In this document: positions 61,599-63,690 of the stretch, piece by piece
Layout of the letters: each line of letters begins with the position of its first letter
Position numbering within the stretch: position 1 is the stretch's first letter
IMG/VR virus record: IMGVR_UViG_2706796139_000001
Coordinates: 114,895 to 178,894 of that record
Origin: Pseudotevenvirus miller
Taxonomy: Duplodnaviria; Heunggongvirae; Uroviricota; Caudoviricetes; Straboviridae
Reading direction: 5' to 3' (one strand)
DNA length: 64,000 nt
Translations under genes and position numbers: made by a program
Notes under the pieces: model-generated
What the model was told of the DNA's origin: nothing
The model's database searches: none
The model's input: only the letters and a program-made list of their open reading frames with translations

Positions 61599-61601
61599 AT
61601 A
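61594..61601 (+). promoter_or_regulatory. Late promoter for holin
   Basis: GATAAATA followed by TCGGGG/CCCCGA hairpin. Confidence 0.55.
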
Positions 61602-61638: not shown

Positions 61639-62283
61639 ATGGCGCTATTACAAGATAAATTGGCTGTGCTTGAACGGGTAATGTCGTTCATCATGGCGGT
61701 CAAAACGTGGAAACAGCTTTTCATCAAATTGATTCTTATCGTAACAATTTTCATTATGTTTATTACATGGTACAAATGGGATGACCTGTTTGCAGTATGG
61801 AAATCATCTTCGAGCGTGATCGATGTTCCCACAATGGAGATCGAAAAGGCAAAAAAGTTTGAATCCGCATCCATTGAACAGTTAAACATAGTGCATTTAA
61901 CTACGGGTGCGGATTTTTCGGCAGTCTTTGGGTTCAGACCTAAGAATGTCAATTATTTTGTTGATATAATTGCGTATGAAGGGAAGTTACCGCAACAGAT
62001 TGATCCGAAAAATCTGGGTGGCTATCCTATAGATAAGACATCGGAAGAATACAACAGACATATAAACGGGCTACCGTATATCTCAGATATCGCAAGCCCG
62101 TACCTTCCGACAAAAAATCTTGTTCCGGTAGTCTACACCTTTAGTTGTCCTTACTTCAATCTCGAAAACTACTATTCAGGATCAATCTTAATGGAATGGT
62201 ATAAACAGAAGCCCGAAGTCACCGACATGAAGTTAATGATCGTGTGCAATCAGGCCGCTAGAATTTTAGGCAGGATTCGATGA
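61639..62283 (+). CDS. t: Holin T
   Basis: Single TM helix, FRPKN.NYFVD...YEGKLP, KNLGG.P.DKTSEEY..H, CNQAAR.LGR; start ATG 61639. Confidence 0.93.
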   Translation: MALLQDKLAVLERVMSFIMAVKTWKQLFIKLILIVTIFIMFITWYKWDDLFAVWKSSSSVIDVPTMEIEKAKKFESASIEQLNIVHLTTGADFSAVFGFRPKNVNYFVDIIAYEGKLPQQIDPKNLGGYPIDKTSEEYNRHINGLPYISDIASPYLPTKNLVPVVYTFSCPYFNLENYYSGSILMEWYKQKPEVTDMKLMIVCNQAARILGRIR

Positions 62284-62544
62284 TAATTTCAGTTTCGTTT
62301 TTTCCAAAGCCCGATTGATGAAGTTTTTAACTTTCGTCATCGGGCTTTTATCGTATATATCCCACGTTCGCATAAGTTCATACGGTGTAGGAATATATTC
62401 ATCGTTCCAGTAACCCACATTCCCTATCGTAATGCGCCGGAAACCAGCCTCTGCGGTGTAATATACAAAGAACCCAGCCTTACCCACAGGCGCTACCTTA
62501 AAACCTCGTGTAGCGGCTTTCATTGCTTCTTCGTGTGTCATCAT
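62266..62544 (-). CDS. Divergent Tad2/DUF2829-like protein B
   Basis: MTHEEAMKA...G.KV ... YIPTPYEL...WDI; start ATG 62544 (RBS GGAG). Confidence 0.55.
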   Translation of the reverse strand: MMTHEEAMKAATRGFKVAPVGKAGFFVYYTAEAGFRRITIGNVGYWNDEYIPTPYELMRTWDIYDKSPMTKVKNFINRALEKTKLKLSSNPA

Positions 62545-62828
62545 GCACCACTCCAATAATTTATAAAGCGACGAACACCGTATGCTTCCATTTCGATAAA
62601 ATGGAGTGTCCCGTGTAGCATATCATGATTCTCGTCTTCATCGACAATATCCCAATCGGTAGCTTTCTGTTCTTCGACACTGGCAATGAATACCTGGTTG
62701 ATTTCGATTTTGCGGTGAGACCGTCTAATGATCGTATCCCCTTCACGGAACACGATCACATCTGGAACAGTCGGACGGTACGCGGTTTTACCCGCGCACA
62801 CTTCGTTTAGCATTTCTTCATATGTCAT
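62541..62828 (-). CDS. Divergent Tad2/DUF2829-like protein A
   Basis: MTYEEML..V..GK.AYR ... FIASVEE..ATDWDIV. Confidence 0.62.
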   Translation of the reverse strand: MTYEEMLNEVCAGKTAYRPTVPDVIVFREGDTIIRRSHRKIEINQVFIASVEEQKATDWDIVDEDENHDMLHGTLHFIEMEAYGVRRFINYWSGA

Positions 62829-63613
62829 TCTAATACCTTTACGCGTTGAACGATGGTCTGTTTCACGTCTTTGTATTCCCCGTGTTCTTTAACAGTGGCC
62901 TTGAAAGTGATTACGTCACCTTCGTTTGCAATGTTATTACCGAAGTAAACAACAACATTACCATCAACATTAATTTTGGTCATGAATCTTTCTACTTCTG
63001 TGTAGTAAGAAACTTGAGTGTATCCCAGTGAAATCACTTTCTCAACAGTACCCGTCATTTGCAGACGCTGTTTGATTTCTCCGATGTGTTTTGCTGCGGC
63101 AATCTTCGCCTGGCGTTCTGCTTCCCATTCTGCACGGATTTCTTCACGTTTAGCGATGTAATCCTTATCCAGCGCAACACCCATGCAGTAAGCGCAAATG
63201 GCGCTGAATACTGGGTCGTTGTTCTTTTCGCTGGACTGATCAGCCCACCACAGAACAGTAAACATCGGCATATCTGCAATCACTTCGCCTTTACGCTTAC
63301 CGATTGGCATTATGCCCTGTTCCAGCAGTTCCAGTTTTTCAGTATCGTATACTGACAGTTTGCCGCGACGTTCGAACAGATCGAAGTCTGCGAAGCCCTG
63401 GAAAACCATTTCGAAACTTTCTGATTGAGTCAAACGACTCACCATGCGATCGTAATATTCACGCGCTTTCTCTTCTGCTTTGTCTGGATCGGTAGACAGG
63501 TTGCAGATATAGTTATCAGAAGTATATCCACCTCCCCGACGCTCTACACGAAGAGTGTACATAGCATTTTTACGACCAGAAGAAATGAAGTAAGTAGCGG
63601 TAACTTTAGTCAT
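62825..63613 (-). CDS. Early protein with C-terminal OB-fold-like domain
   Basis: MPIGKRKG motif; FKATVKEHGEY...KQT...RVK; start ATG 63613 with RBS AGGAG. Confidence 0.7.
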   Translation of the reverse strand: MTKVTATYFISSGRKNAMYTLRVERRGGGYTSDNYICNLSTDPDKAEEKAREYYDRMVSRLTQSESFEMVFQGFADFDLFERRGKLSVYDTEKLELLEQGIMPIGKRKGEVIADMPMFTVLWWADQSSEKNNDPVFSAICAYCMGVALDKDYIAKREEIRAEWEAERQAKIAAAKHIGEIKQRLQMTGTVEKVISLGYTQVSYYTEVERFMTKINVDGNVVVYFGNNIANEGDVITFKATVKEHGEYKDVKQTIVQRVKVLE

Positions 63614-63650: not shown

Positions 63651-63690
63651 AATATAGCAAAAGCCCCCGACCGAAGTCAAGGGCTTTTTT
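63651..63690 (-). promoter_or_regulatory. Early promoter embedded in terminator hairpin
   Basis: Minus strand TTGACT - 18 nt - TATATT (TG-extended) within AAAAGCCC...GGGCTTTT. Confidence 0.7.

Follow-up and report, generated by a model that had tools for sequence, protein, structure and literature searches.

Results

A conserved, translationally coupled gene cassette next to the holin gene

The window analyzed here, a stretch of 64,000 nucleotides from a Pseudotevenvirus genome of the RB43-type T4-like group, is 99.7% identical to Citrobacter phage Miller. Three adjoining genes, here called U, A and B, lie on its minus strand. U (62825-63613, minus strand; 262 aa), which adjoins A upstream, was recognized from its open reading frame, start codon and ribosome-binding site as well as from the Miller annotation, and is assigned to phrog_3628, a family without a functional label, at 6.3e-124. 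A (62541-62828, minus strand) encodes a protein of 95 aa that starts with MTYEEML, and B (62266-62544, minus strand) one of 92 aa that starts with MMTHEEAM. Both reading frames, which the initial annotation had placed at 62266-62828, were recovered there and are the same two annotated in Miller; their families, phrog_7434 and phrog_7751, carry the label 'unknown function'. B is convergent with the holin gene t (61639-62283, plus strand; Pfam Phage_holin_T, 7e-56; Miller annotation), and the 3' ends of the two genes overlap by 18 nt (62266-62283). Searches with U against the PDB, PADLOC and NCBIfam, and with A and B against PADLOC and NCBIfam, gave no matches.

The stop codon of U overlaps the start codon of A in an ATGA at 62825-62828, and that of A overlaps the start codon of B in a second ATGA at 62541-62544. 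Identical overlaps are found in environmental relatives, in agreement with the translational coupling proposed from the sequence earlier, and the gene order U-A-B is kept in the environmental contig L017 and in L018. U, A and B are a conserved, translationally coupled cassette of three genes, with U in first position.

A consensus scan placed a sigma-70-type, early-type promoter-like site (TTGACT-18-TATATT, with TG before the -10 box) at 63651-63680 on the minus strand, matching 10 of 12 positions. Promoter-like sites are not enriched across the region (4 observed compared with 4.1 expected in shuffled sequence), so the argument for a promoter rests on conservation: the hexamers and the 18-nt spacing are preserved in phage Lw1 (L008) and in L017, which is divergent. 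The TTGACT promoter named in the initial annotation can thus be retained as a conserved consensus match. The site is interleaved with the terminator hairpin of the upstream gene (63663-63684, minus strand), read from the sequence as GCCCTTGAC-TTCG-GTCGGGGGC followed by TTTT and coinciding with the terminator annotated in Miller; its 5' arm includes the -35 box of the cassette promoter. In L017 both arms have changed in such a way that the stem persists, and the loop reads GAAA.

A and B always travel together in a group of T4-like phages

By tblastn, A and B are present in one and the same set of ~172 phage records, and the two genes give equal counts in each of the six host genera represented most often. 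The carrier phages infect Klebsiella, Enterobacter, Cronobacter, Citrobacter and Escherichia. Matches of both genes are limited to RB43-type and Klebsiella-phage clades, with T4 absent, and the pair is fixed across the RB43/Miller-type and related Klebsiella, Enterobacter and Cronobacter T4-like phages. A wider A family was sought by tblastn on phages, in IMG/VR and in metagenome scans, which returned close relatives only; matches to A in Aeromonas (E 0.4-0.8) were spurious.

The literature searched contains no description of the A/B pair and nowhere links Tad2 to RB43-type phages. The A and B peptides do not appear in the supplementary-table text of a 2025 Tad2 survey, which may itself be partial. 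The phage genome holds no Sequestin or Acb4 gene and no PF21825 match.

B is related to Tad2 through its N-terminal half

The initial annotation had described both proteins as Tad2-like. Tad2 (Thoeris anti-defense 2; PF11195, DUF2829) has as its founder the 89-aa protein of phage SPO1 (PDB 8SMG). Neither A nor B reaches the Pfam gathering score of 25 bits, and when scored with a profile of canonical SPO1-type Tad2, 3-9% of shuffled copies do as well as the A and B of the window. Since these scores fall in the upper tail of the shuffles, the relationship of A and B to Tad2 is visible only to profile-profile comparison. Single-sequence phmmer searches of the PDB with A and B gave nothing relevant, and the matches of B to IcmE/DotG were noise from an 'AGF' repeat.

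For B, the profile-profile result is clear. Its family matched canonical Tad2 in hhalign with 91.4% probability (E 9.2e-7) against 110 sequences and with 92.6% probability (E 4.5e-7) against a wider alignment of 187. The observed score of 38.6 was matched by none of 150 column shuffles, the maximum of which was 22.8. The similarity sits in residues 2-32: the N-terminal half by itself scored 34.5 (93% probability; 0/60 column shuffles equal), and the C-terminal PTxxE...WDI motif scored 9.7, the null level, and so shows no profile similarity to Tad2. By-eye alignment of 'YIPTPYELMRTWDIY' in B to 'WVPSQTDVLAEDWDIV' in Tad2 is likewise unsupported by profile scoring and is kept as a possibility only; W61 of B is placed differently by MAFFT and hhalign. 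The window's own B has no match to PF11195 (cut-off 25 bits), which is matched by 4 of 20 members of its family. The best of these is P0040 (E 3e-4, 21.7 bits), which belongs with P0037-P0041, the B homologues that have diverged furthest. The top ESM Atlas cluster for B is Tad2-like (0.90; 206 of 256 features shared), and the top PDB entries for the B profile are Tad2 8v3e and MoTad2 9eib, tied at an E of only 0.16. B is thus very probably a far-diverged representative of the DUF2829/Tad2-like superfamily, and here the Tad2-like label holds well. Such a protein would retain the N-terminal helix of Tad2 along with strands one and two and would add a basic C-terminal helix, an element that a low-confidence model places in B, that is specific to its family and that Tad2 does not have.

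A resembles Tad2 most clearly at the end of its core

A has two parts, a conserved core of 62 residues and, after it, an acidic C-terminal tail that is hypervariable (residues 63-95, encoded at 62541-62642). At the nucleotide level the core is ~88% identical to that of relatives, compared with 56-69% for the tail. Against PF11195 (cut-off 25 bits) the whole protein scored 14.6 bits, the core 16.3 and the best A relative 17.5. The match is collinear across model positions 1-73, and PF11195 is the top Pfam match in 14 of the 18 A members and in two environmental homologues. Against canonical Tad2 sequences, hhalign gave 4.8% for the first alignment (A1) and 18.9% for the core. The core rose to 47.7% (E 1.9e-4) against 187 sequences, and the C-terminal motif alone reached 73.5% (E 2.9e-5) against that set. 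None of 150 column shuffles matched the observed score. Within the core, the FIASxxE..A.DWDIV motif carries the signal (score 21.8-26.0; 42-74% probability; 0/60 shuffles equal), and the N-terminal helix is marginal, with 1/60 shuffles as good. The Tad2 motif frame that had been read into both proteins is present in both, and only the N-terminal half of B and the C-terminal half of A clearly beat chance.

The family of A is narrow (Neff ~1.8) and its profile correspondingly weak. The strongest PDB match of this profile is not Tad2 but residues 52-98 of the YhaM OB fold (E 0.0034 and 0.0082), a match that weakened once more divergent A sequences were added; the third ESM Atlas cluster for A is Tad2-like. 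On balance, A is somewhat more probably than otherwise a stripped-down, minimal Tad2-like core (residues 1-62), and the earlier label is tentative for this protein, with hhalign at 19-48% for the core. Such a core would contain helix alpha1 and four or five strands along with the 'AS..E..A.DWDIV' motif of alpha3-beta5, would have no beta2-beta3 insertion, and would be followed by the acidic tail.

The two proteins had also been called paralogues, a claim that the comparison of A with B does not sustain: hhalign probabilities were 1-4%, confined to the N-terminal helix, and BLASTP found nothing, which is chance level. A direct paralogy of A and B is therefore not demonstrable.

AlphaFold2 monomer models were built from family alignments of 18 (A) and 13 (B) close sequences and reached a pLDDT of 49.7 for A and 47.9 for B. 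Tad2 was not recovered by Foldseek with the B model against the PDB or by a wide VIA-align search with the A model, both of which listed weak, unrelated rows. With pLDDT below 50, this failed comparison is uninformative and does not count as evidence against a Tad2 fold. The order of elements in these low-confidence models (helix, strands, short helix, strand) fits that of Tad2 (10.1101/2023.05.01.538930), a fold in which the N-terminal helix packs against an antiparallel sheet of five strands and a short helix precedes the last of them.

The canonical ligand pockets are lost

Tad2 sponges are homotetramers whose ligand pockets lie between protomers. In these proteins, a Trp and an Asn of the GWNG loop, which connects beta1 and beta2 (W25 and N26 in SPO1; W21 and N22 in HgmTad2), stack on and hydrogen-bond gcADPR. 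Both residues are invariant in our 110 canonical Tad2 sequences, and the HgmTad2 W21A/N22A variant shows markedly reduced gcADPR binding (PMC10680739). At the position of this loop A has '..YRPT--VPD..' and B '..APVG--KAG..'. The Trp and Asn occur in neither family, and alignment to Tad2 confirms for both the loss of GWNG reported in the initial annotation. Across the Tad2 family, the gcADPR site is predicted to be non-working in only ~1% of proteins (PMC10680739).

The second half of the pocket (SPO1 W73, S76, T78 and D79) corresponds in A, in a moderately supported alignment, to F47, S50, E52 and E53, such that A retains the aromatic, the Ser and the acid. In B the corresponding residues would be Y50, T53, Y55 and E56, solely on the by-eye alignment, which has no backing from profile scores. 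The long insertion between beta2 and the next core strand, from which HgmTad2-type sponges build their dinucleotide pocket, comprises residues 36-59 in SPO1 Tad2 and 32-72 in HgmTad2. It is absent from A, where the strand 'VIVFRE' passes through a two-residue GD turn into 'TIIRR', and ~5 residues occupy its place in B. Both families have invariant basic clusters (R35, R36, R39 and K40 in A; R13, K16 and R36 in B), and the overall charge of A and B is strongly opposite (pI 4.8 vs 9.6).

Discussion

Judged by sequence comparison, the A/B pair appears to be a new, pocket-degenerate variant of the Tad2 family, with B well supported as a member and A tentative. Like Tad2, both are small phage proteins of ~90 aa behind an early promoter, with a predicted order of secondary-structure elements that corresponds to it. 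B shares the N-terminal helix with the pattern 'M-x-F/Y/H-x-E-A/M...G-x-K-V' and the hydrophobic strands after it, and A the C-terminal 'A-S-x-x-D/E...A-x-D-W-D-I-V' motif. Unlike Tad2, they fall below the Pfam cut-off and are missing the GWNG loop (W25, N26) and Q77, and W73 has given way to Phe in A and, if an uncertain alignment is followed, to Tyr in B. In Tad2 the dimer interface is formed by the beta2-beta3 insertion with helix alpha2, of which A has nothing and B a short version. Each protein also has a terminal addition of its own, the acidic variable tail of A and the basic extra helix of B. Finally, Tad2 is encoded by a single gene, in contrast to the two divergent copies in tandem found here.

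The initial annotation proposed that A and B are signal sponges of altered specificity and possibly form a hetero-oligomer, and on this the evidence points in two directions: both known pockets are degenerate in A and B, yet the Tad2 family is functionally versatile (10.1101/2025.08.24.671296), with 3'cADPR, His-ADPR, N7-cADPR, cGAMP/cGG and cUMP/cCMP as ligands at two different interfaces. MoTad2 (ModTad2; 9EIB) and HgmTad2 (AcrIIA7; 8KBI-8KBM) have an additional pocket that accepts cUMP/cCMP or cyclic dinucleotides, illustrating that the scaffold can acquire ligand specificities at other protomer interfaces. Both, unlike A and B, retain the canonical W/N pocket, and the second pocket of HgmTad2 is formed by a long beta2-beta5 insertion of a kind that A and B do not possess. 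Within the Straboviridae, T4 TadIV-1 (Vs.3, 92 aa) and T4 Y16O (Sequestin) are small early sponges that counter TIR signalling, and they are unrelated in sequence to A and B.

On homology and genomic setting, counter-defence by signal sequestration appears the likeliest role for A and B, although we advance it only tentatively. The proteins may be small oligomers, made early in infection, that capture an immune signal of the host and keep it sequestered. The canonical sponge mode is impossible for them, since the GWNG Trp/Asn and the dinucleotide-binding insertion are both missing, and with these pockets lost any ligand must occupy a remodelled one. Candidate residues for such a pocket would be the basic clusters together with F47 and E53 of A and, if the C-terminal alignment of B holds, Y50 and E56. 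Taken as a whole, our reading of the locus as an early, coupled U-A-B cassette with diverged Tad2-like A and B and a possible counter-defence function is a working model, held with reserve.

Loss of both canonical pockets is also what would be seen if A and B had a degenerate Tad2 fold that no longer binds nucleotides and acts on a macromolecule of host or phage origin, for instance through direct inhibition of a defence protein or through contact of the basic clusters and the basic tail of B with nucleic acid. The opposite charges of the two proteins and the C-terminal helix that B has and Tad2 does not are in keeping with this idea, as is the fast evolution of the A tail beside a core that is held, the pattern expected of a surface tracking a variable protein partner. 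We nevertheless consider it rather unlikely, as all DUF2829 proteins characterized to date are small-molecule sponges, the sole anti-CRISPR claim (AcrIIA7) was not reproduced (PMC10680739), and the family has repeatedly gained new ligand specificities and not new modes of action. Less probable again is that A and B are clade-specific early accessory genes with no part in immunity, such as modulators of host metabolism or transcription, for which a distant Tad2 relationship would be functionally uninformative. T4-type early regions are rich in small genes of varied or unassigned function, the PHROG families of A and B have no functional label, and the pocket residues are gone. However, the pair has been retained in all ~172 related phages together with its coupling and promoter, and every tested member of the homologous family is anti-defence, which raises the prior for counter-defence.

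A different question is whether A belongs with B at all. A could be an unrelated small beta-rich protein, its middle perhaps an OB-like beta-hairpin, with a MxYEEM start and a DWDIV end that resemble Tad2 by chance or convergence. The 4.8% of the first hhalign comparison, the YhaM OB fold as best PDB match, the marginal N-terminal segment, the chance-level comparison with B and the weak profile of so narrow a family would all be accounted for. Yet A matches Tad2 in two distinct segments and in the correct order, the match spans the whole Pfam model, and the C-terminal motif stands out when compared with the larger Tad2 alignment. OB folds do not open with a helix and then four strands, OB families are absent from the Pfam matches of A up to an E of 1, and the YhaM match declines as divergent A sequences are added. 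We therefore regard an unrelated A as doubtful and keep the Tad2-like reading for both proteins, tentatively so for A.

Tad2 is among the most widespread phage counter-defence families, and its gcADPR pocket is reported to be conserved in ~99% of members. That the pocket is lost and the pair is retained in ~172 phages implies either that the Tad2 scaffold has an undescribed function or ligand, or that these phages counter a host signalling system still lacking a matched sponge. Whichever applies, the result would extend the map of phage-host immune signalling and help explain the host range of phages isolated against clinical Klebsiella. If A and B bind nothing, they would set a limit on inferring a 'sponge' from DUF2829-like sequence.

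A more specific proposal, which we regard as a long shot, is that A and B form a hetero-oligomer whose mixed interfaces create a new pocket, sequestering an immune signal that no Tad2-type protein in enterobacteria is yet known to sponge. A hetero-oligomer would fit the fixed 1:1 synthesis expected from ATGA coupling, the strict co-occurrence of the genes, and the pairing of an acidic A tail with a basic B helix. The sponges known at the time of a 2025 survey were all homo-oligomers (10.1101/2025.07.12.664507), and an A/B complex, if real, would give phage sponges their first heteromeric example. The nearest parallels are the fused two-sponge proteins Acb4-Tad2 and Tad2-Sequestin (10.1101/2025.07.12.664507), which combine two sponge-type modules at fixed stoichiometry. 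In A and B, a fixed stoichiometry would come about through translational coupling and not through fusion, and no fused A-B protein was encountered. The modules of the fused proteins belong to different, individually functional families, whereas A and B would both be degenerate and Tad2-like.

Organization and conservation of the locus

Between positions 61600 and 64000, the window matches Citrobacter phage Miller at 99.7% identity and RB43 (Pseudotevenvirus, Straboviridae) at 99.2%. The plus strand here carries gp37, gp38 and the holin gene t, which ends at 62283. Three minus-strand genes, all labelled 'hypothetical' in the deposited records, converge on t: gene U (62825-63613, 262 aa, phrog_3628), the first of the three, gene A (62541-62828, 95 aa, phrog_7434) and gene B (62266-62544, 92 aa, phrog_7751). 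The initial annotation had described A and B as translationally coupled behind a TTGACT promoter, and both features were recovered. A and B share an ATGA stop-start overlap (62541-62544), which is read directly from the sequence, as do U and A (62825-62828), and a Shine-Dalgarno-like GGAG or AAGG lies ahead of each overlap. A scan placed a promoter-like site upstream of U (TTGACT-18-TATATT with TG before the -10, 63680-63651, minus strand), matching at 10 of 12 positions. The hairpin at 63663-63684 (minus strand; GCCCTTGAC-TTCG-GTCGGGGGC, then TTTT) is the terminator of the gene preceding U and is marked as such in the Miller annotation. Promoter and terminator are thus nested within 63651-63684 (minus strand): the 5' arm of the 9-bp hairpin, which has a UUCG loop, includes the -35 box, TTGAC(T), and the T-run extends into the -10. 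In L017, a divergent environmental contig, both hexamers are kept at the 18-nt spacing, as is the hairpin, whose stem is changed on both arms yet maintained and whose loop is GAAA. Since promoter and coupling are kept in relatives, they are conserved features and not chance matches.

The order U-A-B with convergent t is retained in RB16, Lw1, KP15-type phages and two environmental contigs. By tblastn, A was found in 173 phage records (leaving out seven spurious Aeromonas matches) and B in 172. Host counts for A and B are identical across the six commonest genera: Klebsiella (116), Enterobacter (20), Cronobacter (14), Citrobacter (8), Escherichia (7) and Raoultella (2). Gene U gave no above-threshold Pfam match and none in PDB, PADLOC or NCBIfam. 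Two deposited Klebsiella phage records annotate its homologue as 'Erf-like' or 'RecT-like ssDNA annealing protein', labels that are record annotation only, and the C-terminal 100 residues of U match several further PHROGs, all of them function-unknown. At the other end of the locus, early B and late holin t share 18 nt at their 3' ends (62266-62283), so that the ...LSSNPA end of B and the ...LGRIR of the holin are opposite strands of the same bases. The end of B is near-invariant because of this overlap, even in homologues just 33% identical to the window's B.

Relationship of B and A to Tad2

The motif frames that had suggested membership of Tad2 (DUF2829, PF11195), a phage family that sequesters immune signals, are present in both proteins, as MTYEEM...ASVEEQKATDWDI (A) and MTHEEAM...PTPYELMRTWDI (B). 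For comparison, canonical alignments of 110 and later 187 sequences were built from SPO1 Tad2, the founding member (L005:1489-1758, 89 aa); in the former, R22, W25, N26, K28, M30, S76, Q77, D79, D84 and W85 are invariant. The close B family had no match in Pfam. Once the family had been widened by an exhaustive profile search, which brought in eight divergent homologues (P0034-P0041), B aligned to the 110-sequence Tad2 set by hhalign at 91.4% (E 9.2e-7) and to the 187-sequence set at 92.6%; column shuffles of the B alignment reached a maximum score of 22.8, against 38.6 observed. PF11195 was matched by 4 of 20 B family members (best E 3e-4), the nearest ESM Atlas clusters were Tad2-like or DUF2829 (0.90), and the top PDB matches of the B profile, weak at E 0.16, were Tad2 (8v3e) and MoTad2 (9eib). 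The signal is confined to residues 2-32 (alpha1, beta1, beta2), and the C-terminal half of B scored at null level against Tad2 in profile comparison. B is very probably a true, very distant DUF2829 relative.

For A the corresponding case is more graded. Its family is narrow (Neff about 1.8), and PF11195 is the top Pfam match for 14 of 18 members plus two environmental homologues, always collinear across the full model, at 14.6-17.5 bits, under the cut-off of 25. The hhalign probability climbs with better alignments: the whole family against 110 Tad2 sequences gave 4.8% (E 0.0083), the core (residues 1-66) 18.9% (E 0.0012), the core against 187 sequences 47.7% (E 1.9e-4) and the C-terminal motif alone against the same 187 sequences 73.5% (E 2.9e-5). 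None of 150 column shuffles attained the observed score; the N-terminal helix was marginal against Tad2 alpha1 (1 of 60 shuffles). Alternatively, A could be unrelated to Tad2, as the top PDB match of its profile covers 45 residues of the YhaM OB fold (E 0.0034), but this match weakens to E 0.0082 once divergent A sequences are added. Residues 12-58 of A (62655-62795, minus strand) match OB-fold residues 52-98 of YhaM/CBF1 (PDB 9o7t), IVFREGDTIIRRSHRKVEINQVFIA versus IVHVKGDIINYRGNKQMKVNQIRLA; the resemblance could be a chance beta-hairpin likeness or a real local relationship. We consider A, too, probably a distant DUF2829 relative. The label 'Tad2-like' stands for B and is plausible for A, below the Pfam cut-off. 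The proposal that A and B are paralogues did not fare as well: direct comparison detected no similarity between them, and paralogy is unproven.

Ligand pockets and possible roles

AlphaFold2 on shallow alignments gave pLDDT values of 49.7 for A (H3-10, E16-20, E24-29, E32-37, E45-48, H51-55) and 47.9 for B (H4-12, E16-20, E24-28, E35-39, H54-58, E61-62 and an extra H68-81). In these low-pLDDT models the element order agrees with the published Tad2 topology; fold searches with them were uninformative (pLDDT < 50).

Tad2 ligand binding employs two interfaces. SPO1 Tad2 holds gcADPR by W25 and N26 of the GWNG loop, W73 and D79, helped by T78, I63, T65, D67, H71 and S76 (10.1101/2023.05.01.538930). 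In HgmTad2, the W21A/N22A double mutation markedly reduces gcADPR binding, and the cyclic-dinucleotide pocket is made of a beta2-beta5 insertion; a non-functional gcADPR site is predicted for only about 1% of Tad2 proteins (PMC10680739). In alignments to Tad2, the Trp and Asn of the GWNG loop are missing from A and B alike, as had been noted initially, and their beta1-beta2 loop is shorter by two residues. As aligned, A retains F47, S50 and E53 opposite W73, S76 and D79; the B equivalents are uncertain. A has no beta2-beta5 insertion, and B one of about five residues. Judged from these alignments, the canonical Tad2 pockets are gone in both proteins. The family-defining pocket features were found in neither, and A and B would thus be Tad2-like in ancestry rather than in pocket.

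Tad2 proteins are homotetrameric sponges (10.1101/2023.05.01.538930) whose members variously sequester 3'cADPR, His-ADPR, N7-cADPR, cGAMP/cGG or cUMP/cCMP (10.1101/2025.08.24.671296, PMC10680739). According to a 2025 survey, every sponge then known was homo-oligomeric, and fusions of Tad2 to Acb4 or Sequestin are common (10.1101/2025.07.12.664507). The T4 anti-Thoeris proteins Vs.3/TadIV-1 and Y16O belong to unrelated families. Tad2 was not mentioned alongside RB43, Pseudotevenvirus or Slopekvirus in the literature searched. A Pfam scan of the whole phage genome found no PF11195 besides gene A, no Sequestin (PF21825) and no Acb4 (PF13876); should A and B prove not to be sponges, Tad2, Sequestin and Acb4 would all be undetectable by Pfam in this genome.

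The initial observation of two tandem Tad2-like genes largely holds, and its interpretation holds in part; a hetero-oligomer of A and B and a sponge function are hypothetical. The likeliest role of A and B, which we put forward tentatively, would be early counter-defense via a putative remodelled binding site. It is also feasible that a Tad2-like scaffold has been put to a non-sponge use.

The tail of A (residues 63-95; 62541-62642, minus strand) is hypervariable, with 56-69% nucleotide identity to relatives and indels, against about 88% for the core. A frameshift artefact was ruled out, and a loose pattern is kept, in which an acidic run precedes HD.L, followed by a hydrophobic strand and G(V/I)R. 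Basic residues in A include R35, R39 and K40, which are invariant, and R36, which is nearly so; invariant ones in B are R13, K16 and R36. A is acidic (pI 4.8, about -8 at pH 7) and B basic (pI 9.6, about +5), its charge lying mostly in the C-terminal 25 residues and C-terminal helix. Such opposite net charges of coupled products are compatible with an A-B complex, though not evidence for one.
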